From Chrysiogenia bacterium (lineage in GTDB: Bacteria > Acidobacteriota > Aminicenantia > UBA2199): a DNA stretch of 64,000 nucleotides. How positions within the stretch are numbered: the first letter of the stretch is position 1; every line of letters begins with the position of its first letter. The stretch covers positions 114,125-178,124 of the forward strand of contig JBDRQC010000008.1 in the NCBI GenBank assembly GCA_043826505.1, in the 5' to 3' direction. Of the stretch, positions 27,078 through 45,348 are shown one piece after another. The translations under genes and the position numbers were made by a program. The notes beneath the pieces were generated by a model. That model was not told the origin of the DNA. It was given only the letters and a program-made list of their open reading frames with translations, and searched no databases.

Positions 27078-27152
27078 ATTAAGCATTGCGCCATGTTGAC
27101 AATAAAAATTTTTTATAGTTAGATAACAAAATATCATATCAAGGAGGCCTGC

Positions 27153-28292: not shown

Positions 28293-28302
28293 AAGCGACC
28301 CC

Positions 28303-31300
28303 ATGAATCGTATCAGAGTCGTAACCGCGGCAGCCCTGTTCGATGGACATGATGTTTCCATTAATATCTTCAGAAAACTTCTGCAGAAAAAAGGGGTTGA
28401 AGTCATTCATCTCGGCCACAACCATGCAGTCAAGGAAATTGTCACAGTAGCGGTCCAGGAGGATGCCGATGCGATCCTGATCAGCTCCTATCAGGGCGGC
28501 CACAATGAATTCTTCCGTTATGCCGTTGACAGCTTCAAGCAGCTGGCCATCAGCAATATCCTCATCTTCGGGGGCGGCGGCGGCGTCATTCTCCCCGCCG
28601 AGATAAAGAAACTGGAAGCCTATGGGGTCGAAAAAATCTATCATGCCAGCGATGGTCAAAAAATGGGCATCAACGGCATTGTCGATGACATTATCGCCCG
28701 GATAAACAGAAAAAAAGAGGATAGCACGGACATTGGTCTGCAGGATATCGACGCTGCTCAAGTCGCCAGCTTGAATGTCTCAGCCCACCAGAGCATCGCC
28801 AAGCAGATCACCTTCATTGAAAACAACCTGCAAGTTGGTGATGTGTCGGCCGCCTATAAAAAATTATATGCCGCCCACGATCAAAAAAAATCTCTGGTCC
28901 TGGGCGTCACCGGAACCGGAGGCAGCGGCAAGAGTTCATTGATCGATGAATTGATCAACCGCTTCCTGAAAATCACCAGCGATTTTTATATCGGGGTGCT
29001 GACCATTGATCCAACCAGAAGGGTTTCCGGCGGAGCCCTGCTAGGTGACCGCATTCGCTTCAATAATATCAATGATCCCCGGGTCTACTACCGGAGTTTT
29101 GCCACCCGTGAAAGCAAATCGGAAATCACCCTGGCGCTGCAGGACGTCATCGCGGTTCTCAAGGCCAGCGGCTTTGATCTGATCATCGTTGAAACCAGTG
29201 GTATCGGCCAGGGAGACAGTCGCGTGATCGATTTTTGCGACCGTTCGGTCTATGTGATGACCTCGGAGTTCGGCGCCCCTTCACAACTCGACAAAATCGA
29301 CATGCTGGAAGCGGCTGAATACATCGTCATCAATAAATTTGAAAAAGCAGGTTCAGAAGATGCGTTTCGCGAGGTCGCCCGCAATTACCTGCATAACCAC
29401 GATATCAGGTTGTCCCCGACCCAATCACTGTTCGAACTCAATATCCCGGTTTATGGCACCAGCAGCAACCAATTCAATAACCATGGCCTGAACAAACTGT
29501 TCAGTGACCTGCTGCAACTGGTGATTAAAAAAAGCAATCACAAAATCGCCGTCAGGGAAAATCTGCTTGGGCTGATGCCTCTGGAGTGCAAATTCGATTT
29601 CGGTACCATTGCCAGGAACCGCACCCATTACCTTGCAGATATCGCCGCGGCAATTAATAAGTATCATCTTCAAGCCCGCGAGCAGGCGCAGATCGCCGGT
29701 CAGTGTGACAGCATCAAACAGAGTCTGGAACTGTTTGCCGAGGAAGAGACCAAGCTGCCCATGCAGCGCAAATATGATGAGCTGTGTGCGCAATTGAGCC
29801 TCGAGTCCAGGCAGATAATGGACCGCTGGGAGCAATTAAAGGCAAGTTACAGCCAGGATGTCCTGACCTACAAGGTTAAAAAGAAAGAGATGACCGTCGA
29901 TCTTCACAGCCAGACGATCTCCGGCCTGAAGATTCCCAAAGTGGTTCTGCCCGGCTATGGTCACTGGCATGACCGCCTGCTGTTTTTCTTCAAGGAGAAC
30001 CTGCCCGGCTATTTCCCATTCACCGCCGGTGTCTTTCCTTTCCGCCGCATCGATGAAGATCCCAAGCGCCAGTTTGCCGGCGAAGGCAGTGCCCGACGCA
30101 CCAATAGCCGTTTTCACTATCTTACCGCCAGTGAACCGGCGAAACGATTATCGGTGGCCTTTGACGGGATTACCCTTTATGGCGAAGATCCGGCTTCGGA
30201 ACCTGACATATATGGCAAGATCGGGGAAAGCGGGGTCAGTATCTGTACCATCGAAAACATGGCTGAGCTCTTTGCCGGCTTTGACCTGACCGATCCGCTC
30301 ACATCAGTTTCAATGACCATCAACGCTCCGGCGCCGATCATGGTGGCCATGTTTTTCATGGTTGCCTACCAGCAGCAATTGGAGAAGTTGGGGCCGGATG
30401 CCACTGCAGAGCAAGAAGCTGAACTGAAAGTGGCAACCTTCAGGCGCTTGCGCGGCACCATCCAGGCGGATATCCTGAAAGAGGACCAGGGACAGAACAC
30501 CTGTATTTTTTCCATCGACTTTGCCATGAAGCTGATCGGCGACGTACAAAAATACCTGTCAGAGAACAGGATCGAAAATTATTACTCTTTGAGCATCAGT
30601 GGTTATCATATCGCCGAAGCCGGGGCCAACCCTATCACCCAGCTTGCCTTCACGCTGGCCAATGGCTTTACTTATGTCGAGTATTTTCTCAACTGCGGCC
30701 TGAAAATCGATGAATTCGCTCCCAATCTTTCTTTCTTCTTCAGCAATGGCATGGAAATGGAGTATTCGGTCATCGGGCGCGTGGCCAGGAGGATTTGGGC
30801 CATAGCCATGCGGGACATTTATCACGGCAATGAAAGAAGCCAGAAACTGAAATACCATATCCAGACCTCGGGCCGTTCATTGCACGCCCAGGAAATCAAT
30901 TTCAACGATATCCGCACCACCCTGCAGGCCCTGCTGGCTTTCAATGATAATTGCAATTCACTGCACACCAATTCCTATGATGAAGCCATCACCACCCCGA
31001 CCGAAGAATCGGTCCGGCGTTCGATGGCCATTCAGATGATCCTTTCCAATGAATTCGGGCCGCTGAAAAATGAGAACCCTCTGCAAGGAGCGTTCATTAT
31101 TGAAGAATTGACCGATCTGGTGCAAGAAGCCGTCCTTGCTGAGTTCAACCGCCTGTCATCGCGCGGCGGCGTGCTGGGAGCAATGGAAACGCAATATCAG
31201 CGGTCGAAAATTCAGGAGGAATCACTGTATTATGAAGAACTGAAGCAGTCCGGCGCCTACCCTATCATCGGCGTCAACAAATTTGTCAGTGAAAAACAGG

Positions 31301-31551
31301 AAAATCCCCATGATATAATGAATATCACCCGCAGCTCGAAAGAGGAGAAGGAGCGGATACTCGGTGAACTGAAATGTTTCCAGGAAAAAAACCGGGAGCA
31401 GGCAGAACGGGCACTGGAAAAGCTGCGGGAAGTGGCTCTCGGCAGCGGCAATATTTTTGCCGAGCTGCTCGACACGGTGCAGTATGCTTCTCTGGGTCAG
31501 ATCACCCGGGTTCTCTATGAGGTCGGCGGCCAGTACCGTCGCGGAATTTAG
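28303..31551 (+). CDS. icmF: Fused isobutyryl-CoA mutase (B12-binding + MeaB GTPase + mutase)
   Basis: FDGHDVSINI B12 motif, GTGGSGKSS, ETSGIGQ, DPKRQFAGEG, KEDQGQNTC, ISGYHIAEAGA, LHTNSYDEA; 1082 aa. Confidence 0.95.
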   Translation: MNRIRVVTAAALFDGHDVSINIFRKLLQKKGVEVIHLGHNHAVKEIVTVAVQEDADAILISSYQGGHNEFFRYAVDSFKQLAISNILIFGGGGGVILPAEIKKLEAYGVEKIYHASDGQKMGINGIVDDIIARINRKKEDSTDIGLQDIDAAQVASLNVSAHQSIAKQITFIENNLQVGDVSAAYKKLYAAHDQKKSLVLGVTGTGGSGKSSLIDELINRFLKITSDFYIGVLTIDPTRRVSGGALLGDRIRFNNINDPRVYYRSFATRESKSEITLALQDVIAVLKASGFDLIIVETSGIGQGDSRVIDFCDRSVYVMTSEFGAPSQLDKIDMLEAAEYIVINKFEKAGSEDAFREVARNYLHNHDIRLSPTQSLFELNIPVYGTSSNQFNNHGLNKLFSDLLQLVIKKSNHKIAVRENLLGLMPLECKFDFGTIARNRTHYLADIAAAINKYHLQAREQAQIAGQCDSIKQSLELFAEEETKLPMQRKYDELCAQLSLESRQIMDRWEQLKASYSQDVLTYKVKKKEMTVDLHSQTISGLKIPKVVLPGYGHWHDRLLFFFKENLPGYFPFTAGVFPFRRIDEDPKRQFAGEGSARRTNSRFHYLTASEPAKRLSVAFDGITLYGEDPASEPDIYGKIGESGVSICTIENMAELFAGFDLTDPLTSVSMTINAPAPIMVAMFFMVAYQQQLEKLGPDATAEQEAELKVATFRRLRGTIQADILKEDQGQNTCIFSIDFAMKLIGDVQKYLSENRIENYYSLSISGYHIAEAGANPITQLAFTLANGFTYVEYFLNCGLKIDEFAPNLSFFFSNGMEMEYSVIGRVARRIWAIAMRDIYHGNERSQKLKYHIQTSGRSLHAQEINFNDIRTTLQALLAFNDNCNSLHTNSYDEAITTPTEESVRRSMAIQMILSNEFGPLKNENPLQGAFIIEELTDLVQEAVLAEFNRLSSRGGVLGAMETQYQRSKIQEESLYYEELKQSGAYPIIGVNKFVSEKQENPHDIMNITRSSKEEKERILGELKCFQEKNREQAERALEKLREVALGSGNIFAELLDTVQYASLGQITRVLYEVGGQYRRGI

Positions 31552-31562
31552 GGAGGTGAAAG

Positions 31563-32084
31563 ATGATGAAAGCTGACCGGATCGACCAACTATCCAGAGA
31601 AGAATTGCTCATACTGACACAAGTATATGCCAAAAACTGGCTTGCTCATGATGGTTCATGGTTCCTTTCCATTGAAGAGAAATACGGTTTGGCCAAGAGC
31701 ATCGAAATCGACATCGAGTCGTGGCGGAAATTCACCGTTATTGAAGCCGCACGCCTGATCGAGTTTCTGCAATTGGGGAAAAATTCAGGTATTTCAGGTT
31801 TGAAAAAAGCCCTGGCTTTTCGCCTCTATGCCTCGCTGAATGAGGACGAAATTGTCTCCATTGACGAAAACACATTTGAATACAGGGTCAAAACCTGTCG
31901 GGTGCAGCAGGCCAGACGACGTAAAAATCTGCCCGATTTTCCCTGCCAACCGGTGGGACTGGTGGAGTATGGCCTCTTTGCCAGTGCCATCGATGCCGCT
32001 TTTCACACCGAAGTCGTCAGTTGTCCGCCGAATATCACCCGCCCCGAGCATTATTGTATCTGGCGCTTCCGCCTCGGCGCTTAA
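31563..32084 (+). CDS. DUF6125-like uncharacterised protein
   Basis: NWLAHDGSWF, CRVQQARRRK, FPCQPVGLVEY, SCPP...YCIWRF pattern. Family assignment from memory. Confidence 0.6.
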   Translation: MMKADRIDQLSREELLILTQVYAKNWLAHDGSWFLSIEEKYGLAKSIEIDIESWRKFTVIEAARLIEFLQLGKNSGISGLKKALAFRLYASLNEDEIVSIDENTFEYRVKTCRVQQARRRKNLPDFPCQPVGLVEYGLFASAIDAAFHTEVVSCPPNITRPEHYCIWRFRLGA

Positions 32085-32137
32085 ACCCTATTTCAAAAGC
32101 AACCGGCCGCAGGTTTTCTTAAGGACATTCCTGCAGG

Positions 32138-32950
32138 TCAAATCTCCGGTACGCTTATTATGCTTTCGAGCACATCCCGGGAACGTTTATCGTCGGGGTT
32201 GGCTTCGATGGACTTGCGCAGCGTTTCTACCGCATCGTTGATCCTGCGCAGATTGTAATAGGACATGCCGAGATGGTACAGGGCTGCCTTGTCTTCGTGG
32301 CTGGCTGCAATGACCTTCAGGAAGTGGGGAATGGCTTTTTCGTGCTGGCCGAGGGCATTCAGATTGATACCCAGGTGATAGTTGGCAATGATCGAGTCCG
32401 GGTTCATTTCCAACAATTTCGTGAAAGCCGTGATGGCTTTCTGCTGACTCCCCTGGTGGTAGTAGGCAATGCCCAGCCAGTAGTAAGCGCCGATGAATCC
32501 AGAGTCGAGATCAAGGCACTTTTCAAAGCTGCCGACCGCTTCGCTGATCCGGCCGCTCCGATAATAACTGATGCCCAGGTTATAGTGATCCTTAGCCTGG
32601 CCGGGATTGGTTTCAATGGCTTTCCTGTAGCTGGCGATGGACTCGTTTATGGCCCCGGCCTGGTAAAACAGTTCACCCAGGATACTGTGAATGTAGGGAT
32701 TCTGCCGGTCCACCTCAAGCAGGTTCTTGGCTGCCTCGATGGCTTTCTTGATCTTGCCCTTGGCTTGCAGCAGGTTCAGCTGATATACCCAGTAAGAAAC
32801 GCTATTGTTTTTTTTTATGGGCTTTCCGCACAGCGGACAGAAGTTGTACTTGACTGCCAGTTCATCTCCGCACTGTTCGCATCTATTAGCCATTTCTTTC
32901 CCTGCCGCGGATTCCTTTTTCCCGCTTTCATCATCATGATCAGCTGTCAT
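32138..32950 (-). CDS. Zinc-ribbon + tetratricopeptide-repeat protein
   Basis: CEQCG...CPLCG followed by about six TPRs (YNLGISY, YWLGIAY, YHLGIN, YHLGMSY). SD GGAGG. Confidence 0.85.
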   Translation of the reverse strand: MTADHDDESGKKESAAGKEMANRCEQCGDELAVKYNFCPLCGKPIKKNNSVSYWVYQLNLLQAKGKIKKAIEAAKNLLEVDRQNPYIHSILGELFYQAGAINESIASYRKAIETNPGQAKDHYNLGISYYRSGRISEAVGSFEKCLDLDSGFIGAYYWLGIAYYHQGSQQKAITAFTKLLEMNPDSIIANYHLGINLNALGQHEKAIPHFLKVIAASHEDKAALYHLGMSYYNLRRINDAVETLRKSIEANPDDKRSRDVLESIISVPEI

Positions 32951-32979
32951 TTTAGCCTCCAGGCTTCATTTTCACAAGG

Positions 32980-33008
32980 ATTGTAAGCGCGAAAGCGGAA
33001 ATTGTCAA
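32980..33008 (-). promoter_or_regulatory. sigma70-type promoter of the TPR gene
   Basis: TTGACA (33008-33003), 17 bp, TACAAT (32985-32980). Confidence 0.7.
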
Positions 33009-33047
33009 TTCGTTTAAATACTCCAGATTTTTTATGCGTTACTTTGA

Positions 33048-33076
33048 TTTACTTTTTCATAAAAATAGTTTATATT
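33048..33076 (+). promoter_or_regulatory. sigma70-type promoter of the HMG-CoA synthase operon
   Basis: TTTACT (33048-33053), 17 bp, TATATT (33071-33076). Confidence 0.5.
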
Positions 33077-33136
33077 AAAGGGCCATTTAAATAATTTTTT
33101 CGTAAATGTGCAATCTCAAAAAAAATGGAGGATGCA

Positions 33137-34183
33137 ATGATTGGAATAGTTGGTTATGGCAGTCATATTCCGCGCTACAGGATCAAGGTCGAGGAAATCG
33201 CCAAAGTATGGGGCGCGGATGCTCCCGCCTACAAGAAAGGCCTGGGATTGAATGAGAAATCGGTGCCGGCACCGGATGAGGACTGCGCTACGCTTGCAGT
33301 GAACGCATCCCGCAACGCGCTGCGGCGAGCCAACATCGACGCCAAACAGATAGGGGCCGTATATGTGGGAAGCGAATCCCATCCATATGCAGTGAAGCCT
33401 ACTGGCACTATCGTGTCCGAAGCTTTGGGCGCCTGTCCCTTTGTCCATACCGCGGATCTCGAGTTCGCCTGCAAAGCCGGTACTGAAGGCATGTTTATCG
33501 CTCTGCACCTGGTCAAGTCAGGCGTTGTGCAATATGCTTTGGCTGTGGGCGCGGACACATCCCAGGGGGCGCCTGGCGACGCATTGGAATTTTCGGCAGC
33601 AGCTGGAGCTGCCGCTTTTATCATGGGTTCAAAAAACCTGGCGGCGGAATTACTGGACACTCATTGTTATATGACCGATACCCCGGACTTCTGGCGTCGT
33701 GAACACGCCTATTACCCGGAGCACGGCGGGCGTTTCACCGGCAAGCCCGCTTATGAGAAACATCTCTTTAACGCTACCAGCGGAATGCTGGAAAAAGCAA
33801 AACTGAAACCAGAAGATATCAGCTACGTGATTTTTCACCAACCAAACGGTAAATTCCCGGTCAACGCTGCGCAAAAACTGGGTTTCAAGGAACCGCAATA
33901 CAAATTAGGCCTGCTATGTCCGACATTAGGCAACACCTACTCCGGTTCATCGCCCATGGGCCTGGCGGCAACCCTTGACGCGGCTGAAGCCGATCGATTG
34001 ATTTTGCTGGTTTCCTACGGTTCCGGTGCCGGCAGCGATGCCTTTGTTTTCCGTACTACCAAAAAACTGCTTGAAATTCGCGATATGGCTCCAAAAACTC
34101 GCAAACAGCTGGATGAGCACAAACAGTACATCGAATACGGAACTTACGCAAAATTCAGGCGCAAGATCCTGCGGGCAGAGTAA
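33137..34183 (+). CDS. Hydroxymethylglutaryl-CoA synthase, archaeal type
   Basis: About 350 aa. [25 protein letters not shown] (Glu), [11 protein letters not shown] (Cys), FHQPNGKFP (His), [17 protein letters not shown]. Confidence 0.9.
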
Positions 34184-34194
34184 GGAGGAAATCA

Positions 34195-35349
34195 ATGAAT
34201 GAAGTAGCAATAATAGGAGTCGGGATGACGAAATGGGGAGAGCTGTGGGAAAAATCTCTCCGTGATATTTCAGTGGAAGCCGCCTTAAAATGCCTGGATG
34301 ACGCTGGCGTCGACAAAGTAGATTCTATAACCGTGGGCACCATGTCCGGCGGGTTGTTTAACGCCCAGGAGCATATAGGGAGCCTGGTGGCTGATTATCT
34401 CGGACAGCGTTTCGTCCCTGCCACCCGCGTGGAATCCGCTTGCGCTTCCGGTGGATTGGCCGTAAAATCAGCCTACATGGAAGTGGCTTCCGGCTTATCC
34501 CAATGCGCGCTGGCCGTGGGTGTGGAAAAAATGACCGACGTGGATGGAGGCGATGCGACATTTGCTTTAGCCACTGCATCCGACTATGATTATGAAGCTT
34601 TCCACGGGATCACCTTCCCCGGGCTTTACGCCCTGATGGCGGTCGCCCATATGAAAAAATACGGCACCAGCCTCGAACAATTGGCGCAGGTTACGGTAAA
34701 AAACCATCACAACGGCAGCCTGAATCCCCATGCGCAGTTTCCATTTGCCGTAACCCTGGACCAGGTCATGACCTCCACGATGGTAGCGGATCCAATGCGC
34801 CTGCTTCATTGTTCACCAATCACCGACGGCTCGGCCGCAGTGCTGCTGGTTCCAGTGGCCGTGGCCAAAAAAATGAACAAGCCATACGCCGTGATCACTG
34901 GGATCGGTCATGCTTCGGATACCATTGCTTTGTGCCAGAGGAAAGATTTTGCCAAGCTGGAGGTAGTGGAAGTCGCCGCTCAGCGGGCGCTCAAAATGGC
35001 CGGAAAAACCATACGCGACATCAACTTTGCCGAAGTCCATGACTGTTTTTCCATTGCCGAGATCATGGTAATGGAAGCCTTGGGAGTGGCAGAACCAGGT
35101 CAAGGCGGACCGGCAACCATGAATGGCTTGACCGCCCTGGCAGGTGGTTTTCCAATTAATCCCTCCGGCGGTTTAAAGTCCAAGGGCCATCCTGTAGGCG
35201 CCACGGGCGTGGCTCAGGTAGTCGAAGCGGTCATTCAACTGCGCGGACAGGCAGGACCGCGGCAGATCAAGAACGCCCGGACAGCTTTAACTCAAAATAT
35301 GGGCGGCTCAGGCGCCAGCAGCGTAATTCATATATTGGAGGCACGATAA
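34195..35349 (+). CDS. Acetoacetyl-CoA thiolase, archaeal type
   Basis: [45 protein letters not shown]. Confidence 0.88.
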
Positions 35350-35753
35350 TGGCAATGCATGTAGCTAGAAATTGGCGGGAAACTCCCGAACGTTACCGGA
35401 TGGAAGCGGCCAAATGTAAAAAATGCGCTGCCATTCACTTCCCGGCACGACTCATTTGCCCCGAATGCCAGGCAAGGGAATTCGCAACCTTCAGACTTTC
35501 AGGGAAAGGCGAACTGGCAACCTTCACCATTATCCGGGTCGCCCCGACCGGGTTCGGAGACTTGACTCCCTATGCCGTGGGCATTGTGAAATTGGATGAA
35601 GGCATCCACATCATGGCCCAGATCGTCGACTGCAACCCCGAAGAACTGAAAATTGGTGACCGTGTCGTGTCCCAATTCCGCCGCATCAACCAGGAAGGAA
35701 AAACCGGCATGATCATCTACGGCTACAAGTTCGTACCGGATCTGGGATTGTAA
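35349..35753 (+). CDS. DUF35 Zn-ribbon/OB-fold scaffold protein
   Basis: CKKC...FPARLICPEC, PYAVGIVKLDEG, YGYKF. Translationally coupled to the thiolase. Confidence 0.9.
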   Translation: MAMHVARNWRETPERYRMEAAKCKKCAAIHFPARLICPECQAREFATFRLSGKGELATFTIIRVAPTGFGDLTPYAVGIVKLDEGIHIMAQIVDCNPEELKIGDRVVSQFRRINQEGKTGMIIYGYKFVPDLGL

Positions 35754-35785
35754 AATCAAATTAATAGGATAGACACAACATATCC

Positions 35786-37135
35786 ATGTTCAAACGAATT
35801 CTAATAGCCAACCGGGGCGAAGTGGCCCTGCGCATCATCAAAGCCTGTAAAAAAATGGGCATAGAAACCGTTGCGGTTTATTCCACGGCGGACAAGGATT
35901 CTCCCCACCTCGCTCAAGCTGACAAAACCATATGCATCGGCCCGGGACCCAGCAGCCGCAGTTACCTGAACCGCGAAGCCATACTCCAGACAGGTATCGA
36001 TAGCGAATGCCAGGCGATCCATCCCGGTTTCGGTTTTCTGGCGGAAGACCAGTTGTTTTCCTATATGTGCCGGCAGCATAAATTGAATTTCATCGGGCCT
36101 ACTCCCATTTCCATCCAGGTCATGGGCAATAAATCCCAAGCCAAGCAAACCGTAAAGCAGGCCGGGCTGCCGACCATTCCAGGATCGCAGGGAAATCTGA
36201 AAAACATGGATGAGGCCATGGCCCTGGCCAATGAGCTGGGGTACCCGGTTCTATTAAAAGCAACAGCCGGAGGAGGCGGAAAAGGCATCCGCCCCTGCTA
36301 CCATAAAGAAGAATTTAAAGACCTTTGTCTCCAGGCCAGCATGGAAGCCGAAAAAGCCTTCGGCTGCGGCGATCTGTACATGGAAAAGCTGATCCTGAAA
36401 GGACGGCATATCGAATTTCAGGTACTGGCCGACGCTTTTCACAACGTGATTCACCTTGGTGAACGGGAATGCTCCATCCAGAGAAAGAACCAGAAACTCA
36501 TCGAAGAATCCCCATCCCCGGCCATGGACCCTGAAATCCGCGGTAAAGTTGGCGCTCAAGTTGCGGAAGCCATGAAAAAGATCGGTTACCTTAATGCCGG
36601 AACCATCGAATTCCTGATGGATGAACATAAAAAACTTTACTTCATGGAAATGAACACCCGGCTGCAGGTGGAGCATCCGGTGACCGAGATGATCACCGGG
36701 ATAGATATTGTGGAGGAGCAGATCAAAATCGCCGCCAACCATCCTTTGTCTTTCACTCAGGAAAATGTTTCTTTCAGCGGCCATGCCGTCGAGTGCCGTA
36801 TAAACGCTGAAGATCCGGACAACGATTTTGCCCCTTCTCCCGGTGTCATAACCGCTTTCAGCCCCCCACTGGGCGCAGGTCCAGGCAAAATTCGCCTGGA
36901 CACCCACGTGGCGGCAGGATATGAAATACCTTCTTTTTATGATTCCATGATTTGCAAAATCATCGCACACGGCGAAGATCGCGCCACTGCCATTCGAACC
37001 ATGGTGAATGCGCTGAGAGCTTTCGAGATCAAGGGTATTAAAACCACTATCCCCCTTCACCTTGAAATACTTGATTCGAAAATATTCAAAGCAGGAAATT
37101 ATCACACTAATTCTCTTGCGGAAATCATGGGGTAA
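35786..37135 (+). CDS. Biotin carboxylase (stand-alone AccC-like subunit)
   Basis: ILIANRGEVA, IHPGFGFLAE, KATAGGGGKG, RECSIQRKNQK, EMNTRLQVEHPVTE, FYDSMICK. No fused biotinyl domain. Confidence 0.92.
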   Translation: MFKRILIANRGEVALRIIKACKKMGIETVAVYSTADKDSPHLAQADKTICIGPGPSSRSYLNREAILQTGIDSECQAIHPGFGFLAEDQLFSYMCRQHKLNFIGPTPISIQVMGNKSQAKQTVKQAGLPTIPGSQGNLKNMDEAMALANELGYPVLLKATAGGGGKGIRPCYHKEEFKDLCLQASMEAEKAFGCGDLYMEKLILKGRHIEFQVLADAFHNVIHLGERECSIQRKNQKLIEESPSPAMDPEIRGKVGAQVAEAMKKIGYLNAGTIEFLMDEHKKLYFMEMNTRLQVEHPVTEMITGIDIVEEQIKIAANHPLSFTQENVSFSGHAVECRINAEDPDNDFAPSPGVITAFSPPLGAGPGKIRLDTHVAAGYEIPSFYDSMICKIIAHGEDRATAIRTMVNALRAFEIKGIKTTIPLHLEILDSKIFKAGNYHTNSLAEIMG

Positions 37136-37150
37136 GGGAGGGGTAATAAA

Positions 37151-38893
37151 ATGGCAAAAGTATTAATGGAACGTATCGGTTCGCCCATCGAGACGTTTAT
37201 GGATCCGGCCGACTTCAAAACAAACCAGGAGTACATGAAGCGATTGAACGAGAGTTACCAATCCAAACGCCAGGAGGTCAAGGCAGGCTGGGGCGAGCAA
37301 TATGCGGAACGGGCGCATAAAAAAGGGAAAATGACCACCTGGGAACGGATCGAATTTTTAAAGGATCCCGGCAGCAAGGTATTCCCCATCGGCACCTTTG
37401 TTAACTACGGATTGGAATTCGGTGAAGGCAGCAATAAACGCAAAGCGCCCGGGGCAGGAGTGGTTACCGCATTTGTCAAGATCGAGAACCGCCACGTGAT
37501 AGTAATCGCCAATGACAATACAGTGGCTTCGGGTTCCTGGTGGCCCCTTACGCCGGAAAAAATCGAACGGGCGCAGGAAATTGCGCTTCGACTGAGAATT
37601 CCCGTGGTATATATTATCGATTGCAGCGGTTTATTTTTGCCGGAGCAGTCCAAAACCTTTCCTGGAAAAACCGGGGCGGGATATATATTTAAAATGAATG
37701 CTCTATTAAGCGCCCAGCAGGTACCCCAGATAGCCGGTGTATTCGGCGACTGCATCGCCGGCGGAGGGTATATGCCCATCATCAGCGATATCGTCTACAT
37801 GACCGAGCAAGCATACATGGTCATTGCCGGCGCCGCATTGGTCAAAGGCGGCAAGGGCGAGCAAATCACTTCCCTTACCATCGGCGGACCTGACATCCAT
37901 GTCAATATCTCCAACTGTGCGGACTACAGGGTACCAAATGACAAAGCGCTCCTTTTGAACATCAAGAAAGAAATCGCCAAGCTCCCGTCCAGCGGTATCG
38001 AGTATTATTACTACGGCCAGGAGCCTGCGCCTCCCCTTTTCGACCCCGCTGAAATCGAAGGAATATTTCCCATGGATTACAGGGTCACCTATGATATCCG
38101 GCAAGTTATCGCCCGGATCGTGGATAACTCTCTTTTCTGGGAAATATTCCCCGACAGGGGCAAGGAAATTGTCTGCGGTGTCGGCAAGATCAATGGATTG
38201 TACGTGGGTATCGTTGCCAACAACCAGAATTTGACCGAACACCCTGTGCACAAAGGCAGTAAACGGCCAGGAGGCATCCTGTACAAGGATGGCATCGCTA
38301 AAATAACGACTTTCTCCAGGGCCTGTAATTGCGACGGTATTCCTATCATATGGTTGCATGATATCGCCGGGTTCGACATCGGCCCCGAAGCGGAAAAAAT
38401 GGGCTTATTGGGATGGGGTTCCAATTTGATTTACACCAATTCCACTAACTCCGTCCCGTCCATTACCGTGCTTTTGCGAAAAGCCTCCGGAGCCGGATAC
38501 TACGCCATGAATGGAAGGCCTTACGAACCCATCGTGCAATTGTCCACTCCCCTTGCACGGCTGGCGGTGATGGAAGGCAGGACACTGGCCATCGGCGCTT
38601 TCCGGACAAAACTGGATGAGAATTTCAATATTGTTTTTACAAGCCAGGAAGAGCACGACAAGGTAAAAAAAGGAATGGATGAGTTGGAACTCCGTATCAG
38701 CGAAGACATGAACCCGATCCTCAGCGCGCGCCAGCTGGATACTGATGAAATTGTCCTGTTAAGCGAATTGCGGTCTTACCTGGAAACTGTCACCGAAATG
38801 ACCTACCAGAGTATCGGCTACAGGCGCGTGAAAAACCCGCGCATATGGTCTTTGCATGATATCGATGCCTTATCCGGGGATACGGGAGATTGA
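37151..38893 (+). CDS. Acyl-CoA carboxyltransferase (3-methylcrotonyl-CoA carboxylase beta / glutaconyl-CoA decarboxylase alpha-like)
   Basis: [53 protein letters not shown]; 580 aa with two CT domains. Confidence 0.85.
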
Positions 38894-38894
38894 A

Positions 38895-39497
38895 ATGACG
38901 GACGAGAAATCAGGGTCATTGGCGGCTCTTGCGGAATTCAGGGATTCGCAGTACATCGTACTATCTCCCAGGGTGGGAAACTTTTCAGGCATGCCCCAAC
39001 CCGGAGCCTGCCTTCCCGGCGGTTCTTTTGTCGGCAGGCTTAAAATTTTGAATACTTTTTATGATCTCCGTTTGCCCGGCGATGTTTCCGGACTGGTGGT
39101 GACGGATAGCGGAAAAGATTTTGTTTTCCCCGTGGAATACGGGCAGGAATTGTTTCGCTTGGACCGGGAAAAGAGTTTCAGCGAATCGGAAAAGCCGATC
39201 GTCAACTTGATCTCAAAAACCGGGGAAGATGCGGAATCCGCAGAAGGTCATGTAATTACCGCCTTTACCACCGGTATTTTTTATGCCAAACCTGGTCCCG
39301 ATTCAGCGCCGTTCGTGACTGTAGGCCAGGAGATAAAAAAAGGAAAAACATTGGGATTGATCGAAGTAATGAAGACTTTTAATTACATCAGTTTCCCCGG
39401 AACCGATAAAGGGGAAGCCGGGATAATTAAAAAAATATACGTAAAGGACTCACAGGAAGTCAAATTAGGGCAACCGTTATTTCTTATAGATCAGTAA
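38895..39497 (+). CDS. Biotin carboxyl carrier protein with an extra N-terminal biotinyl-like domain
   Basis: C-terminal GIFYAKPGPDSAPFV...LIEVMKTFN...VKLGQPLFLI. N-terminal copy lacks the MK motif. Confidence 0.85.
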   Translation: MTDEKSGSLAALAEFRDSQYIVLSPRVGNFSGMPQPGACLPGGSFVGRLKILNTFYDLRLPGDVSGLVVTDSGKDFVFPVEYGQELFRLDREKSFSESEKPIVNLISKTGEDAESAEGHVITAFTTGIFYAKPGPDSAPFVTVGQEIKKGKTLGLIEVMKTFNYISFPGTDKGEAGIIKKIYVKDSQEVKLGQPLFLIDQ

Positions 39498-39643
39498 CTT
39501 AAAGCAATTAACTTGGTAAAAAAACAAGATAATTTGCTTTCTAAGGTACTTATCCCCCCTTGCGGGGACTTCGCAGTACAGCTGGGTTAGCCACAGCGGC
39601 ATGAAGTACGGGATGTAGTGAAAAAAATTAACGGAGGTTGAAG

Positions 39644-40807
39644 ATGTCCTTAAATTTTGATTTGCCCGAAGAAGCAATAATGATTCGCAACACCGTAAGG
39701 GAATTTGCCGAGGAAGTGATCAGGCCCAAAGCCCGGGAGCTTGATGAAAAAGAAGAGTTTTCCCCCGAATTATGCAAACAAATGGGAGATCTGGGACTTT
39801 TTGGTTTTGGCATTCCCGAAGCGTATGGTGGCAACGGCATCGGCTATATTCCTTATTTGACAGCCGTGGAGGAATTGGCGCGCGTGGATGGCTCTCAGGC
39901 CGTGACAGTAGCGGCACATAATTCATTGGGGATCGGGCCCATATACTTTTTCGGCAGCGAAGAACAGAAGAAAGAATACCTGCCCAGGTTATGCACCGGT
40001 GAAAAATTATGGGGATTCGGACTTACCGAACCCGACGCCGGTTCCGATGCAGGCGGCACGAAAACCAAAGCTGAAAAAATCGGCAGCGAATGGGTCATCA
40101 ATGGCTCGAAGACTTTTATTACCAATGCCGCCGGGGACGTATGCCTTGGCAGCACGATTCAAGCCATAAGCGGAGTGAGACCCGACGGGAAAAAGGAGTA
40201 TACGTGTTTCCTGGTGGACCAAGGATCCCCCGGGTACACGGCCAGGGCGCTTCATGACAAAATGTTATGGCGTTCATCCATAACCGCGGAACTCTTTTTG
40301 GATGATTGTCGCGTGCCTGATGAAAAAATATTGGGAAAGCGCGGTGAAGGATTTCATCAGATGCTCGATACCCTGGACAGGGGCAGGTTGTCTATTGCGG
40401 CCATGGGTTTAGGCTGCGCCCAGGGCGCTTATGAACTGGGTTTGAAGTACGCCAAGGACAGGAAGCAATTCGGCCAATCCATTTCGACGTTCCAGGCCTG
40501 CGCATTTAAACTGGCGGATATGGCAGTGGAGATCGAGGCCGCCAGGAATTTGCTTTATAAAGCCGCCTGGCTGTGTGAAAACCGCAAGGATTATAAAATG
40601 TACTCATCGATGGCCAAGCTTTATTGTTCGGAAGTCGCGCACCGCTGTGTTGACCAGTCTTTGCAGTTGCACGGCGGATATGGATTGATGAAGGAATACG
40701 ACATCGAACGTCTTTACCGGGATCAACGGGTGCTGGAAATCGGCGAAGGCACGTCCGAGATTCTCAGGCTTGTGATTGCCCGGCACATCGGATGTTTTAA
40801 TGTATAA
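39644..40807 (+). CDS. Acyl-CoA dehydrogenase (isovaleryl-CoA dehydrogenase-like by context)
   Basis: FGLTEPDAGSD, INGSKTFITN, LDRGRLSIAA, RDQRVLEIGEGTSE. Start MSLNF after GGAGG. Confidence 0.88.
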   Translation: MSLNFDLPEEAIMIRNTVREFAEEVIRPKARELDEKEEFSPELCKQMGDLGLFGFGIPEAYGGNGIGYIPYLTAVEELARVDGSQAVTVAAHNSLGIGPIYFFGSEEQKKEYLPRLCTGEKLWGFGLTEPDAGSDAGGTKTKAEKIGSEWVINGSKTFITNAAGDVCLGSTIQAISGVRPDGKKEYTCFLVDQGSPGYTARALHDKMLWRSSITAELFLDDCRVPDEKILGKRGEGFHQMLDTLDRGRLSIAAMGLGCAQGAYELGLKYAKDRKQFGQSISTFQACAFKLADMAVEIEAARNLLYKAAWLCENRKDYKMYSSMAKLYCSEVAHRCVDQSLQLHGGYGLMKEYDIERLYRDQRVLEIGEGTSEILRLVIARHIGCFNV

Positions 40808-40909
40808 AAAATCTCTTGCCGCAAATGCTCCAGGCCGCAAAGGATAGGCTATTTTATGCCTTCGTGACCCAGCGGCAATAAATATTTTGGAAAAACAGGA
40901 AGTGAGCAA

Positions 40910-41704
40910 ATGATGAACAAGACTTATGAGACGCTTAAATATGATGTCAAAAACCGGGTGATAACCATCTGGCTGAACCGGCCCCAGGTCCACAATGCGT
41001 TTAACCATACCATGCTGGCGGAGCTGGCGGATATTCTGGAAGTCGTGGATCGATCCGACGACATCCGGGTGATCATTTTTACAGGCGAAGGTAAATCATT
41101 TTCTGCCGGAGCGGATTTGAATTGGATGAAGAAAATGATCGATTACACCTATGAGGAAAATCTCAAAGATGCCCTGATGATTTCAGACGTTTTCCATAAA
41201 ATTTACACCCTTAGCAAGCCGGTAATTGCGGCTGTCAACGGGGCAACCATCGGCGGCGGGATGGGATTTGTCGGAGCGGCCGATATCGTAATTGCCTCGG
41301 AAAATGCGAGATTCAGTTTATCCGAGGTGAGAATCGGAGTTGTTCCCGCCTGTATTTCGCCTTACCTGGTGAAGCGGGTCGGGGAAGGGGTATTAAAAGA
41401 ATTATTTATAACCGGGATGCGGTTCGCTGCGGACAAAGCCCTGGACATCAAGTTGATCAATTACAAAGTAGGGCCTGAGCAGTTGTTGGAATTTGCCATG
41501 GAAAAAGCCGGGGAATTATGTTTGTGCGGCCCCATGGCCATAGCGGTATGCAAGCAGTTATTTGTAGAGGTTCCCGGAATGGACTTAATGACTGCCTACA
41601 ATCATACGGCTGATGTGATAGCCAAAATGAGAATATCGCCGGAAGCGCAGGAGGGGATGAAAGCGTTTCTTGAAAAACGCGCCCCGGCCTGGCAGGAAAA
41701 ATAA
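40910..41704 (+). CDS. Enoyl-CoA hydratase family protein, methylglutaconyl-CoA hydratase (LiuC)-like
   Basis: LNRPQVHNAFN, FSAGADLNWMK, VNGATIGGGMG, FSLSEVRIGVVPACISPY, EAQEGMKAFLEKRAP. Confidence 0.82.
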   Translation: MMNKTYETLKYDVKNRVITIWLNRPQVHNAFNHTMLAELADILEVVDRSDDIRVIIFTGEGKSFSAGADLNWMKKMIDYTYEENLKDALMISDVFHKIYTLSKPVIAAVNGATIGGGMGFVGAADIVIASENARFSLSEVRIGVVPACISPYLVKRVGEGVLKELFITGMRFAADKALDIKLINYKVGPEQLLEFAMEKAGELCLCGPMAIAVCKQLFVEVPGMDLMTAYNHTADVIAKMRISPEAQEGMKAFLEKRAPAWQEK

Positions 41705-41740
41705 GGCCCGTCCCCCACTCCCTTTTCCTGCAAATAGCCA

Positions 41741-42922
41741 TCAAACAATTTTTAGTGCTTGATCCAAATCCTCCATGATATCCTGGACAGCCTCGATGCC
41801 TACGGATAATCTGACCAGGTCATCAGTAATTCCGGCTTTTACTTTTTCTTCTTTGTTTACAGAAGCATGAGTCATTGAGGCCGGGTGTTGAATGAGAGTT
41901 TCCACCCCGCCCAATGATACGGCCAAGGTTGCCAAATGAACACTGTCCATCAGTTTTCGCCCGGCTTCCAGACCGCCTTTTACACCGAAACTGATCATCG
42001 AACCGGATCCGCTCATTTGCTTTTTTGCCAAAGCGAATTGGGGATGAGATTCGAGTCCGGGATAGCGAATCCAGGCGATCTTGGGATGACTTTCCAAAAA
42101 GTGAGCGACCTTGATAGCGTTTTCCTGGTTGCGTTCCACGCGCAGAACCAAGGTTTTTACTCCGCGCAGAACCAGATAGGCTTGATGCGGGTCCATATTG
42201 CAGCCCATGTAAACCATGGCATGGCGGATCTTTTCATATAAGTCCTTGCTTTTGGTTATGACAATTCCGCCAACGATATCAGCATGACCATTAATAAACT
42301 TTGTGACAGAATGCAGGACTACATCCGCACCCAGATCCAACGGCTTTTGCAAATACGGAGTGGCAAATGTATTGTCAACAACCAAAACCAAATTGTGTTT
42401 TTTTGCGATCCCGGCACAGGCTTTGATATCGGTAATATCTATTGTAGGATTTGCCGGCGTTTCAATATAAAGGACTTTTGTATTGCTCTTTATTGCTGAC
42501 AGGATGGCATTCAGGTCTGTGGTATTTACAAAATCAGCTTCAACACCAAAGCGTGAAAAATCCCTTTCCAGTACAACTCGTGCCGGACCATAAACAGAAG
42601 CCGTGCTTATTATATGGCTTCCGGCTGCCAATTGCGCCATGTAAACACTCGTTATCGCGGCCATCCCGGAGCTTGTGGCAATTCCATCATAACCATTTTC
42701 CAACTCAGCAATGTTATTTTCGAGTGCGCGGATCGTCGGATTGGCGATTCTCGTATAAATGTATCCAGCGCTTGCACCGGAAAAACAATCTGCACCGTGC
42801 TGGGCATTCTTGAATTTAAATGTAGAAGTTTGATAGATGGGAACAGTAGCGCTCCCGAATTGATCTTCAAATCCTCCACTGTGAATCAGTTTGGTGTTAA
42901 ATCCCATGTTCTTTGTTTTCAT
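41741..42922 (-). CDS. mgl: Methionine gamma-lyase / PLP-dependent transsulfuration enzyme
   Basis: VPIYQTSTF, YTRIANPT, YIETPANPT, VDNTFATP, HSVTKFINGH (PLP Lys), AVSLGGVETLIQHPASMTH. Confidence 0.8.
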   Translation of the reverse strand: MKTKNMGFNTKLIHSGGFEDQFGSATVPIYQTSTFKFKNAQHGADCFSGASAGYIYTRIANPTIRALENNIAELENGYDGIATSSGMAAITSVYMAQLAAGSHIISTASVYGPARVVLERDFSRFGVEADFVNTTDLNAILSAIKSNTKVLYIETPANPTIDITDIKACAGIAKKHNLVLVVDNTFATPYLQKPLDLGADVVLHSVTKFINGHADIVGGIVITKSKDLYEKIRHAMVYMGCNMDPHQAYLVLRGVKTLVLRVERNQENAIKVAHFLESHPKIAWIRYPGLESHPQFALAKKQMSGSGSMISFGVKGGLEAGRKLMDSVHLATLAVSLGGVETLIQHPASMTHASVNKEEKVKAGITDDLVRLSVGIEAVQDIMEDLDQALKIV

Positions 42923-42952
42923 GTTTCTTCCTTATTTATATAATATTTTTGG

Positions 42953-43960
42953 TCATAAACCCAGGTTGTTGAAGGTCGCTTCTGCATCGCGAACCAATGC
43001 GCATACTATCTCTCTGACCGGCTTGACATCACAGATCAGTCCCACGCTCTGGCCGGCCATCAATGAACCGTTTTCCACATCGCCTTCCTGAACGGCGCGG
43101 CGCAGGGCGCCGACCCAGTATTTTTCAACCTCGAACTGGGCCTGTACGCGATTGATCTCTTTGCGGCCCAGCTTTTGGATCAGTTCCAGCTGCAGCCGGC
43201 CAAATTCCTCGCTGCCCTTGTTTTTCAGGGCGCGCACGGCCACTACCGGCAATTCCGAGCTGTACTGCGGCGTGGCGAAAGCTTCCCGGGCCCGCGCTCT
43301 GCAGAACCTTTCCTTGAACTTGGGGTGGGCCGGGCTCTCCTCGGCCATGGCGAAAATTGTGCCCATCTGGACGCCGGCCGCTCCCATCAACAACAGGTGG
43401 GCTATCATCTTCCCTGTGGCAATGCCGCCGGCAACAAAAACCGGCAGCTGCGGGTAATTGAACAACACCTGCTGGATCAAAACAATAGTGGAAACATGGC
43501 CGATGTGACCGCCGGCTTCACTCCCTTCCAGGATCAAGGCGTCGGCTCCATAAGCGATCATGCGCTCGGCGATGGAATCGTTGGAAGCAAAGCACAGCAC
43601 TTTGGCTCCGCTTTCCTTGGCTGTCTTCACCTCTTCCTGGCGCGGAAAACTGCCGGCAAAAACGATGTATGGCACTCCAAGGTCGGCCAATTTTTTTAAA
43701 TGAGTCAGATAATTAGGAGCGATGGTGATCAGATTAACGGCGAAATGACAGCCTCCTTTTTGAAGAGCTTTCACTTCCTGTTCCAGAATATCGGCCGGCA
43801 TGTTGCCGGCGGCCAGCACTCCGAACGCTCCGGCCGCGCCCACGGCTTCGACCAGCTTTGCGCCGCTAATCCAGGTCATGGCGCCGGCGATCAGGGGATA
43901 TTCCACTTGCAGGAAATCCCGGCCGCGCCGCCAGTATTTTTCGTGTTTCTTGGCTATCAT
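42953..43960 (-). CDS. FabK / nitronate monooxygenase family flavoprotein
   Basis: PLIAGAMTWIS, EGSEAGGHIG, VAGGIATG, GVQMGT, GSLMAGQSVGLI. Confidence 0.85.
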   Translation of the reverse strand: MIAKKHEKYWRRGRDFLQVEYPLIAGAMTWISGAKLVEAVGAAGAFGVLAAGNMPADILEQEVKALQKGGCHFAVNLITIAPNYLTHLKKLADLGVPYIVFAGSFPRQEEVKTAKESGAKVLCFASNDSIAERMIAYGADALILEGSEAGGHIGHVSTIVLIQQVLFNYPQLPVFVAGGIATGKMIAHLLLMGAAGVQMGTIFAMAEESPAHPKFKERFCRARAREAFATPQYSSELPVVAVRALKNKGSEEFGRLQLELIQKLGRKEINRVQAQFEVEKYWVGALRRAVQEGDVENGSLMAGQSVGLICDVKPVREIVCALVRDAEATFNNLGL

Positions 43961-44124
43961 AGGAGCATTTTAGCATAGATGAGCCATGAAACCAAGGAAT
44001 ATGAACTCGGTTTACGGCATACGGTACACGGTTGACGGCAAGAATCAAATTCCAAATCCCAAGCAGCAAATACCAAATAAGCTCCAAACACCAATGACCA
44101 AAACGAAGAAAGGAATGAAGGCAG

Positions 44125-44150
44125 GTAGGGGTTTGATTAATCAAACCCCT
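44125..44150. repeat. GTAG-family REP
   Basis: GTAGGGGTTTGAT-TA-ATCAAACCCCT. Confidence 0.75.
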
Positions 44151-44290
44151 CCAGGATCTAGAATTTTAAAATCGCGTAGCGCCTTTATTTAACAGCGAAA
44201 TCTTGTGTCTTTCCTAACCCATCTACCCATTAACCCTTCTACCCATCTACTTTCTGGTTTTGGTTATTGGTGCTTGGATTTTAAAGAACC

Positions 44291-44315
44291 GGGAGGGTTT
44301 AAAACCCTCCCCTAC
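44291..44315. repeat. GTAG-family REP (reverse orientation)
   Basis: GGGAGGGTTT-A-AAACCCTCCC-CTAC. Confidence 0.75.
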
Positions 44316-44550
44316 GTTTGGTAATGGCGAGGGGCCTCTGTTTTCTGACATCTGTTTTCTTCCCTATACCATGAACCCTAAACCCTATCCCCTGTTTCCT
44401 GTACCCTGTTCCCTGTACCCTGTCCCCTATCCTCAGTACCCTCAACCCTCTACCCTGAACCCTATCCTGTGCCTTCCATTTTATCGCTCAGCGGCTCCTT
44501 GAATTTTGCTCAAGAATGGAATATAATCAAGTATCCTCATCAGGAGATTC

Positions 44551-45348
44551 ATGAAAATAATTGAATTCAACCCCGATGGCAAATCGACTGCATTTTCTCC
44601 AAGTGCAATTCCTGCCGAAGCATTCCAGAAAAACGAGATCTTTCGGGAGATACTCCCCCTGGTTTTCCATAAAATGAAAAACAAGCTGACCCCGGTCCTT
44701 GGTTATGCCCAGATCCTGCAATCCCGTTCGAGCGATGAGTTCATAATCGACCGGCTGCGCAGGATCGAAAAAAACACGGCCGAATTGACGGACGCATTCA
44801 ATATTTTGAAGGACTATTTCAAGGCCGCGCCCACGCCCAAGCAGCCGGGGAACATCAATCTCATTCTGCAAGCCATGGGCCCCAATTGGCAGGAAGTCGC
44901 CAATAATGGAAAGATCAGGATCGTGCTCGACCTGGACCCGAAGGCCCCTGTCCTGTGGCTCGACACCGCCCAATTGAAAATTCTGCTGCTGAACATGGTG
45001 GACAACGCCGCCCTGGCCCTGAAAATGAAAGAGCCCCAGGAAAAAGAGATCAGACTGACTACCCGCATGGAAGACAATGCCTTGAAGCTGGTCGTTCGCG
45101 ACAACGGCCCCGGCTTGAGCGAAGAGGAGATCAACGAAATCTGGACGCCTTTCTATGCGAAATTCCCGGAACACGCTGGTCTGGGACTGGTGATCTGTGA
45201 AAAGGTCATCGCCAATCACGCGGCTGCCTGCCGGGTCTCATCATCATTGGGGGAATTCTGCCAATTCGAGATCCGTTTTCCCCTGCCGGAAAACCCGATT
45301 GAAAAGAAGAAAAAGAGCGCCGGGAAAAATCCCTGCTCCAAAGTGTAA
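44551..45348 (+). CDS. Histidine kinase core (HisKA + HATPase) without a sensor domain
   Basis: FHKMKNKLTPVLGYAQ H-box, NMVDNA N-box, DNGPG, AGLGL. SD CAGGAG. Confidence 0.8.
   Translation: MKIIEFNPDGKSTAFSPSAIPAEAFQKNEIFREILPLVFHKMKNKLTPVLGYAQILQSRSSDEFIIDRLRRIEKNTAELTDAFNILKDYFKAAPTPKQPGNINLILQAMGPNWQEVANNGKIRIVLDLDPKAPVLWLDTAQLKILLLNMVDNAALALKMKEPQEKEIRLTTRMEDNALKLVVRDNGPGLSEEEINEIWTPFYAKFPEHAGLGLVICEKVIANHAAACRVSSSLGEFCQFEIRFPLPENPIEKKKKSAGKNPCSKV

Follow-up and report, generated by a model that had tools for sequence, protein, structure and literature searches.

A group of eight genes in a 64,000-nt stretch of DNA from a Chrysiogenia bacterium (contig JBDRQC010000008.1; this whole stretch is referred to below as the window) joins an archaeal-type triad of 3-hydroxy-3-methylglutaryl-coenzyme A (HMG-CoA) synthase (HMGCS), thiolase, and DUF35 protein to a biotin-dependent carboxylase, an acyl-CoA dehydrogenase (ACAD), and a crotonase-family hydratase (ECH). 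We propose, at about even confidence, that these genes form a module that oxidizes isovaleryl-CoA, originating from leucine or isovalerate, to acetyl-CoA, in which the triad would run in reverse in place of HMG-CoA lyase. The evidence that carries this proposal is comparative: beside the gene for the β-subunit of methylcrotonyl-CoA carboxylase (MCC-β), triad and lyase replace each other, the two being almost mutually exclusive among genomes and swapping position at the locus. A first-pass annotation of this DNA had judged lyase-free breakdown through the triad to be the less likely option; given this mutual exclusion and positional swap, it is instead the option that best fits the comparative data.

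The eight open reading frames (ORFs) are all encoded on the plus strand, at 33125-41704 of the window, and are separated by intergenic spacing of 11, -1, 32, 15, -38, 140, and 102 nt. Their common direction, close spacing, and identities had been given in the first-pass annotation and were borne out by the ORFs and by Pfam and NCBIfam models. The carboxylase is made up of a biotin carboxylase (BC), a carboxyltransferase (CT), and a biotin carboxyl carrier protein (BCCP). Together with the leader, the features are:

32951..33124, plus strand: leader 5′ of the HMGCS gene; AT-rich and intergenic, likely a promoter region and a variable junction
33125..34183, plus strand: archaeal-type HMGCS, 352 aa (TIGR00748 and NF003274); alternative ATG start at 33137
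34195..35349, plus strand: archaeal/SCP2-type acetoacetyl-CoA thiolase, 384 aa (NF004720/PRK06064)
35349..35753, plus strand: DUF35 scaffold protein, 134 aa; zinc ribbon and OB fold, start overlapping the thiolase stop
35786..37135, plus strand: BC of the ATP-grasp type, 449 aa; stand-alone, without a fused BCCP (TIGR00514 accC)
37151..38893, plus strand: CT, 580 aa; Carboxyl_trans domain, divergent GcdA/MCC-β-like family
38856..39497, plus strand: BCCP, 213 aa, or about 200 aa from an alternative start at 38895; Biotin_lipoyl (PF00364)
39638..40807, plus strand: ACAD, 389 aa; all ACAD domains, candidate isovaleryl-CoA dehydrogenase (IVD)
40910..41704, plus strand: ECH, 264 aa; LiuC-like, candidate 3-methylglutaconyl-CoA hydratase

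As the first-pass annotation had stated, neither an HMG-CoA lyase nor an HMG-CoA reductase (HMGR) is encoded in the window, and the cluster itself has no lyase gene. Scanning the whole genome for PF00682 gave two matches, both on other contigs. A sample of 401 genomes of the same phylum (the phylum sample) was scored for lyase (NF004283) and MCC-β, and 124 genomes were found to carry canonical MCC-β. Of these, 32 contained the triad only, 61 canonical lyase only, and 29 neither, while both occurred together in only 2 (Fisher p = 1.4e-10, odds ratio 0.03). The same exclusion was seen when counting by 43 families, with 15 triad only, 18 lyase only, 7 neither, and 3 both (p = 5e-4). HMGCS was encoded within about 3.5 kb of MCC-β in 26 of 34 genomes, and the lyase within about 7 kb of MCC-β in about 50 of 63. 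A mid-tier group of CTs with 45-49% identity to MCC-β (e.g., family f30), none of which was found beside HMGCS in the sampled genomes, was excluded from the main statistics.

The absence of a lyase also extends beyond these comparisons. In other phyla, 44 of the 50 triad genomes, complete chromosomes included, had no lyase scoring over the cut-off. Within the phylum sample, this was the case for 26 of the 34 triad genomes with MCC, and a canonical, high-scoring lyase was missing in 32 of these 34. Both the reductase and the lyase were missing in 64 of the 85 HMGCS-positive genomes of the phylum sample, leaving the adjoining HMGCS as the sole recognizable enzyme acting on HMG-CoA, besides the hydratase.

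Judging by their closest relatives, the 3 proteins of the window triad are a genuine archaeal-type HMGCS/thiolase/DUF35 set, which may form a complex. In 2018, Vogeli et al. reportedly described the corresponding channelling complex of M. thermolithotrophicus (PDB 6ESQ/6ET9), which is said to measure 380 kDa and to have a fused CoA-binding site. The assignment rests on the finding that the best or near-best solved relative of each window protein is the matching chain of 6ESQ, and on the intact motifs of the HMGCS. The HMGCS scored 515 bits against TIGR00748 (cut-off 353) and 519 bits against NF003274, and its nearest PDB entry was 6ESQ_I, the HMGCS of the M. thermolithotrophicus complex (464 bits). 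The motifs SESHPY, FACKAGT, FHQPNG, and GNTYSG align to and match those of 6ESQ_I, so that the catalytic Glu, Cys, His, and Asn are all intact. Against the model of the bacterial-type MvaS (TIGR01835), the same protein scored 112 bits, well below the cut-off of 360. The thiolase reached 511 bits against NF004720/PRK06064 (cut-off 420), carries an intact active-site cysteine motif (ACASGG), and matched the archaeal-type 7YVY (366 bits) slightly better than 6ESQ_A (339 bits). The DUF35 protein consists of the domains zf-ChsH2 (PF12172) and OB_ChsH2_C (PF01796), and its nearest PDB entry was 6ESQ_E, the DUF35 protein of the complex (129 bits).

The likeness to the archaeal complex, which is one of sequence, thus covers the same 3 proteins in the same gene order with intact motifs, while the setting differs: the host of the window triad is a bacterium that uses the methylerythritol phosphate (MEP) route and lacks HMGR, and the triad is placed in a leucine-catabolic operon, where it is proposed to act in the direction of cleavage. 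Bacterial tripartite systems of the HMGS/ACAT/DUF35 type that work outside the mevalonate pathway are known from PhlACB and MucABC, Friedel-Crafts acetylases that are encoded in antibiotic gene clusters and have lost the Glu-Cys-His-Asn tetrad of HMGS (PMC12960953). The window HMGCS, in contrast, retains this tetrad, and showed only about 200 bits to PhlA compared with the 464 bits to the archaeal HMGCS.

The synteny survey that the first-pass annotation had called for was carried out by searching species-representative genomes with the HMGCS as a query, followed by tblastn and clustering of ORFs. The linkage of triad and carboxylase was found to recur among the 80 HMGCS loci retrieved, which span more than 10 bacterial phyla, including Bacteroidota, Aminicenantes, Zixibacteria, Acidobacteriota, Ignavibacteria, Planctomycetota, Calditrichota, Eisenbacteria, Elusimicrobiota, and others. 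Going by record titles, anoxic sediments, springs, and deep lakes are apparently the source of most of these loci. The recurrent unit can be written as HMGCS-THL-DUF35-CT-ECH-BC-BCCP (THL, thiolase), with the triad usually directly 5′ of MCC-β, hydratase, BC, and BCCP. This unit was found in Aminicenantes, Zixibacteria, Acidobacteriota, Ignavibacteria, Elusimicrobiota, Eisenbacteria, and others, in varying order and orientation. In some clusters, the carboxylase genes are located upstream or on the opposite strand, and in Bacteroidales, an ACAD gene is located 3′ of the DUF35 gene. The ATP-grasp BC and the BCCP were retained in every cluster examined. As this synteny is conserved across phyla, the linkage of triad and carboxylase goes beyond chance, and the unusual wiring noted in the first-pass annotation, of the triad with a liu-like route without a lyase in the operon, stands.

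The CT of the sister clusters is a true MCC-β, scoring 743 bits to 3U9R of P. aeruginosa, compared with 449 bits to geranyl-CoA carboxylase and about 230 bits to the β-subunit of propionyl-CoA carboxylase (PCC-β). The CT of the window, as far as can be judged from alignments, is a variant and not an ortholog of this canonical MCC-β, to which it is 33-38% identical. It scored 339 bits against Carboxyl_trans, belongs to a divergent family of 575-580 aa, and gave near-level scores to GcdA (PDB 1PIX, 257 bits over nearly the full length), MCC-β (243-253 bits), and PCC-β (about 250 bits). While it resembles GcdA (1PIX, 3GF3) in length (580 versus 587 aa) and in its near full-length alignment, it differs from the Na+-translocating glutaconyl-CoA decarboxylase in having an ATP-grasp BC and a BCCP as its partners, and in being about equally similar to MCC-β and PCC-β. 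The window order BC-CT-BCCP-ACAD-ECH and the window CT family, which is large, recur in the loci L003 and L004, and all 3 distant long contigs with this family (L092-L094) combine it with BC, BCCP, ACAD, ECH, and the triad. That 2 non-orthologous CTs each go together with the triad and the same LiuC-like hydratase points to one conserved pathway, of which one component has been displaced.

Two of these contigs carry further genes beside the unit. On L094, a two-subunit 2-oxoacid:ferredoxin oxidoreductase is encoded between the hydratase and BC-CT-BCCP (11903-14403), a candidate link between ketoisocaproate and isovaleryl-CoA. On L092, a gene pair for a SucCD-like, ADP-forming CoA ligase adjoins the triad (5229-7261).

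For the remaining genes of the window operon, the support from sequence models varied. The BC scored 630 bits against TIGR00514 (accC), with matches to Biotin_carb_N, CPSase_L_D2, and Biotin_carb_C. The BCCP, scoring 75 bits against TIGR00531 (below the cut-off), carries the biotinyl motif IEVMKTF. This motif differs from the common EAMKM, and the start of the ORF overlaps the stop of the CT by 38 nt. The hydratase scored below the cut-offs of 2 LiuC/AtuE-like models (PRK05674, 233 bits, cut-off 426; PRK07468, 225 bits, cut-off 350), with 3I47 as its nearest PDB entry (204 bits); its identity to the hydratase encoded between MCC-β and BC in the canonical clusters is 44-56%. The nearest PDB entries of the ACAD were Bcd-type enzymes or short-chain acyl-CoA dehydrogenases (7SZV, 360 bits; 5OL2, 345 bits), followed at lower scores by IVD (249-259 bits), and a sub-threshold score of 297 bits was found to the non-decarboxylating glutaryl-CoA dehydrogenase. 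None of the window CT, ACAD, and ECH reached an equivalog cut-off. The ACAD and all its triad-adjacent orthologs carry EIGEGT where other ACADs, including 2 more in the window, carry EIYEGT. Both EIGEGTSE (instead of the usual EIYEGTSE) and a short insertion, RPDGKKE, are kept in the triad-adjacent ACAD orthologs of L003-L012 and L057. Loss of the tyrosine in EIYEGT is, we presume, what widens the pocket of IVD, and the change to IGEGT may likewise adapt the pocket to a branched substrate; this is a lead rather than a test.

From the gene identities, motifs, linkage, and distributions described above, we infer the substrates, the formation of a complex, the direction of flux, and the energetics of the following route. 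The dehydrogenase would convert isovaleryl-CoA to 3-methylcrotonyl-CoA, from which the ATP- and biotin-dependent BC, CT, and BCCP would produce 3-methylglutaconyl-CoA, to be converted to HMG-CoA by the LiuC-like hydratase. The triad would then operate in the direction opposite to that in archaea, with HMGCS converting HMG-CoA and CoA to acetoacetyl-CoA plus acetyl-CoA, and the acetoacetyl-CoA being channelled to the thiolase and cut into 2 acetyl-CoA. The net reaction would be HMG-CoA + 2 CoA → 3 acetyl-CoA + H2O, in which the exergonic thiolysis would pull the endergonic reversal of HMGCS, while the net triad reaction would be pushed by the ATP-driven carboxylation and pulled by the consumption of acetyl-CoA. 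BC and BCCP are present in every cluster, in keeping with the catabolic direction, which is that of carboxylation.

The proposed chain from isovaleryl-CoA to HMG-CoA is the same as in the Liu pathway of Pseudomonas (LiuA-E) and in the isovalerate pathway of D. multivorans (PMC5109826), and the sister clusters have an ortholog of its MCC-β. The window cluster differs from the Liu pathway in having the triad instead of the LiuE/HmgL lyase, a separate BC and BCCP, a non-orthologous, GcdA-like CT, and a Bcd-like ACAD with IGEGT. Compared with the lyase route, the proposed route would release no free acetoacetate and would keep one thioester, which corresponds to about one ATP equivalent. Per isovaleryl-CoA, it would yield 3 acetyl-CoA, where the lyase route would yield 2 acetyl-CoA and, after CoA transfer, one acetate. 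Such a saving would matter to energy-limited anaerobes that live on peptides.

The HMGCS step releases an amount of energy comparable to the cost of the thiolase condensation. This cost has been given as +25.2 kJ/mol (PMC10562921). The net triad reaction should thus be near equilibrium and set by mass action, and the thermodynamic objection to a reversed triad is not compelling. The same principle, by which a thioester-hydrolysing Claisen synthase is reversed by mass action with a saving of ATP over a lyase, applies to the citrate synthase of the reversed oxidative tricarboxylic acid (roTCA) cycle. In this cycle, found in Desulfurella and Thermosulfidibacter, citrate synthase is reversed by the pull of low product levels. 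The enzyme family and the pathway differ from those proposed here, where the pull would come from the coupled thiolase, and the parallel is one of analogy only.

A number of points weigh against a catabolic triad that replaces the lyase. To our knowledge, the reversal of an HMG-CoA synthase of any kind has never been demonstrated, and the enzyme is usually regarded as irreversible. In T. brucei, whose HMGCS is of a different type, HMG-CoA derived from leucine is not returned to acetyl-CoA (PMC5993337), and in D. multivorans, which degrades isovalerate anaerobically, a lyase is used (PMC5109826). As orthology to LiuB and LiuA is lacking for the CT and ACAD of the window, the substrates of these 2 proteins are deduced from synteny. 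The statistics on triad and lyase were corrected only crudely for phylogeny and for aerobic versus anaerobic lifestyle. In addition, 7 families with canonical MCC-β (f44, f57, f76, and others) contain neither the triad nor a canonical lyase, so that other solutions exist. In f57, HMGR was present in all 5 sampled genomes, which suggests that leucine is routed to mevalonate there, while f44, with no lyase match at all in 7 complete or near-complete genomes, may use a third solution. Finally, a lyase-family gene was found elsewhere in the window's own genome (G000:C4:731354-732271), scoring 276 bits against NF004283 (cut-off 246). The idea of a lyase-free system, as put forward in the first-pass annotation, therefore applies to the operon, but not strictly to the genome.

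Among the alternatives to be weighed, the opposite direction of the operon, raised in the first-pass annotation by analogy with the myxobacterial AIB pathway, is disfavoured, and we consider it rather unlikely, although it is the leading rival. Here, 3 acetyl-CoA would be converted by way of HMG-CoA, 3-methylglutaconyl-CoA, and 3-methylcrotonyl-CoA to isovaleryl-CoA, with the biotin enzyme acting as a decarboxylase, which might conserve energy, and the product either priming iso-fatty acids or yielding leucine by reductive carboxylation. Synthesis is the only direction demonstrated for the triad, many of the carrier phyla are generally known to make iso-branched lipids, and biotin carboxylase reactions are generally taken to be near equilibrium at standard conditions. 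Moreover, the Bcd-type enzymes nearest to the ACAD also act reductively, the oxidoreductase encoded on L094 could join isovaleryl-CoA and ketoisocaproate either way, and the absence of a lyase would avoid a futile cycle in the synthetic direction too. However, a conserved, dedicated ATP-grasp BC would be needless for decarboxylation, and no GcdB-type membrane subunit was found in the window cluster or in L092-L094 (GcdB was not searched for genome-wide). Running the BC in reverse against the cellular ATP/ADP ratio would presumably require a large ratio of substrate to product. The MCC-β and hydratase are close orthologs of the catabolic Liu enzymes, and the genomic setting is one of peptide and acyl-CoA catabolism; together with the retained BC and BCCP, these features favour the catabolic direction. 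The rarity of LeuA in most carriers could also be taken to suggest that the cluster makes leucine: bacterial-type LeuA was found in 7 of 58 genomes with triad and MCC but in no complete chromosome (0 of 4), and was absent in the window's own genome, all 5 congeners searched, and most of the class, while 13 of 14 control genomes scored. However, LeuA was equally rare in genomes from its class, family, and genus that lack the triad, suggesting that leucine auxotrophy is lineage-wide and that leucine is imported rather than made by the cluster. As the rarity of LeuA does not track the cluster, a replacement of the isopropylmalate route to leucine was rejected as an argument for the synthetic direction. 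The AIB pathway itself (MvaS, LiuC, AibA/B, AibC) shares the intermediates between acetyl-CoA and isovaleryl-CoA and a LiuC-type hydratase with the window cluster, but is anabolic and makes use of a bacterial-type MvaS, a decarboxylase resembling glutaconate CoA-transferase, and an MDR reductase (PMC5389471). The window cluster instead encodes the archaeal-type triad, an ATP-dependent biotin carboxylase, and an ACAD, and its direction is probably the opposite; no AibA, AibB, or AibC domains were found among the 8 window genes, the rest of the genome not having been searched for them. In a doubtful variant of the synthetic direction, to which we give little credence, the ATP-grasp enzyme would itself run in reverse, so that decarboxylation of 3-methylglutaconyl-CoA would yield ATP, pulled by the strongly exergonic reduction of methylcrotonyl-CoA. 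If true, this would be a new energy-conserving step at the substrate level, and would let anaerobes without LeuA make isovalerate, primers of iso-lipids, or leucine de novo.

It is also unlikely that the operon encodes a standard Liu pathway finished by the lyase-family gene at G000:C4, with the triad serving a separate purpose, e.g., acetoacetyl-CoA thiolysis or metabolism of the ketone-body or polyhydroxybutyrate (PHB) type. That gene does score above the cut-off, beside a gene for a family III CoA-transferase, and a gene of this kind also occurs in 6 of the 50 genomes with the triad from other phyla and in 8 of the 34 with triad and MCC from the phylum sample, but the explanation does not apply to most carriers, which have no lyase at all, complete chromosomes included. 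The gene is of a mid-scoring class, for which canonical MCC-β was present in 14 of 49 genomes, compared with 63 of 87 for the high-scoring class. It was also found in 4 of 5 congeners, 3 of them without any CT match and one with a weak, non-MCC CT, and 3 of these 4 had no HMGCS sequence. An intact HMGCS would moreover be left unexplained, and a futile cycle of synthase and lyase would arise. The gene probably has another role, although cleavage of HMG-CoA is possible. Still less probable, in our estimate, is that the carboxylase and ACAD of the window variant use glutaryl-, glutaconyl-, or crotonyl-CoA, and that they adjoin the triad only because both depend on acetoacetyl-CoA thiolysis. GcdA and MCC-β are equally close to the CT, the ACAD has its sub-threshold match to glutaryl-CoA dehydrogenase, and CT, ACAD, and ECH are all under their equivalog cut-offs. 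However, the variant holds the position of the canonical MCC in the sister clusters, the orthologous LiuC-like hydratase and the BC are retained, a glutaryl-CoA route has no use for HMGCS, and the IGEGT change resembles the widened pocket of IVD. Finally, acetyl-CoA and leucine routes that converge on HMG-CoA for the mevalonate pathway, also proposed in the first-pass annotation, now appear highly improbable. This is the established role of the triad in archaea, and 8 of the 50 genomes with the triad in other phyla gave strong matches to HMGR, although 3 of the 4 complete chromosomes gave none. Yet PF00368 had no match in the window's own genome (a 9-contig, 2.0-Mb assembly, rated about 68% complete, whose contig C8 holds the window), nor in 5 of 5 congeners and 6 family members, which are 92-97% complete, while IspH of the MEP route was present in the window's own genome. 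Across the phylum sample, HMGR was present in 9 and missing in 76 of the 85 genomes with archaeal-type HMGCS, while 65 HMGR-positive genomes had no such HMGCS, so that the two are, if anything, negatively associated (odds ratio 0.46). Since HMGR is missing in the genome, the genus, the family, and most carriers, and IspH is present, a mevalonate role for the triad was rejected.

A search of full-text literature returned no paper that ties the HMGCS/thiolase/DUF35 triad to MCC or to leucine catabolism. A reversed HMGCS/thiolase complex as a widespread replacement of the lyase, for which the chances are about even, is likewise undescribed in the literature searched. If the proposed catabolic role is correct, it would provide a function for the "archaeal" triads of bacteria, which are carried by 21% of the genomes in the phylum sample, mostly without a mevalonate pathway. 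It would add a final step to the catabolism of leucine and isovalerate that needs no lyase and conserves a thioester, and alter the ATP yields assumed for the degradation of amino acids and branched-chain fatty acids in anoxic sediments and digesters. Pathway calls of the kind "leucine degradation incomplete" or "mevalonate pathway partial" would be corrected. Furthermore, HMGCS would be the second "irreversible" Claisen synthase, after citrate synthase, to be reversed in nature, and the complex would be a reversible channelling module that works both ways, which is of interest for engineering.

The region around the lyase-family gene of the same genome (L001, G000:C4:729863-733693, 291-3618) places it between a gene resembling isocitrate/isopropylmalate dehydrogenases and one for a family III (SUGCT/CaiB-like) CoA-transferase. 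This region may constitute a dicarboxylate-CoA lyase module, to judge from its gene content.

The surroundings of the operon in the window encode DPP-IV and S46 peptidases, a Ptb/Buk-like pair, a β-oxidation set, IcmF, and methionine gamma-lyase. The butyrate-kinase-like and phosphate-butyryltransferase genes are located at 11512-13502, and the region 22238-32084 contains a minus-strand set of ECH, HADH, thiolase, and ACAD, as well as a plus-strand trio of a Bcd-like ACAD, IcmF, and DUF6125. Together with the genes of these 2 regions, the eight-gene operon is, by its predicted functions, a branched-chain acyl-CoA catabolic island.

In the leader of the operon, a weak sigma-70-like match was found at 33048-33076, which was not above shuffled sequence. 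Scans for consensus terminators and promoters over 31500-44600 likewise gave counts equal to those of shuffled sequence, promoters of the Bacteroidota type being outside the consensus used.

Collinearity of the congener G147 with the window extends over 16479-33023, at 93% nucleotide identity. At the point where collinearity stops (33023-33027 of the window), a 12.6-kb defence island starts in this genome (L090, G147:C88, 290-12888), beyond which the first 187 nt of HMGCS are found at the end of the contig. The remaining members of the genus gave no full match to HMGCS. Given the island and the partial HMGCS at the contig end of G147, the junction at which the cluster is located is variable, and the cluster has been incompletely assembled in at least one relative. 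The island contains genes for GmrSD-like and AAA/DUF3696 proteins, an Eco57I-type methylase, an SNF2-PLD helicase, and a Fic protein.

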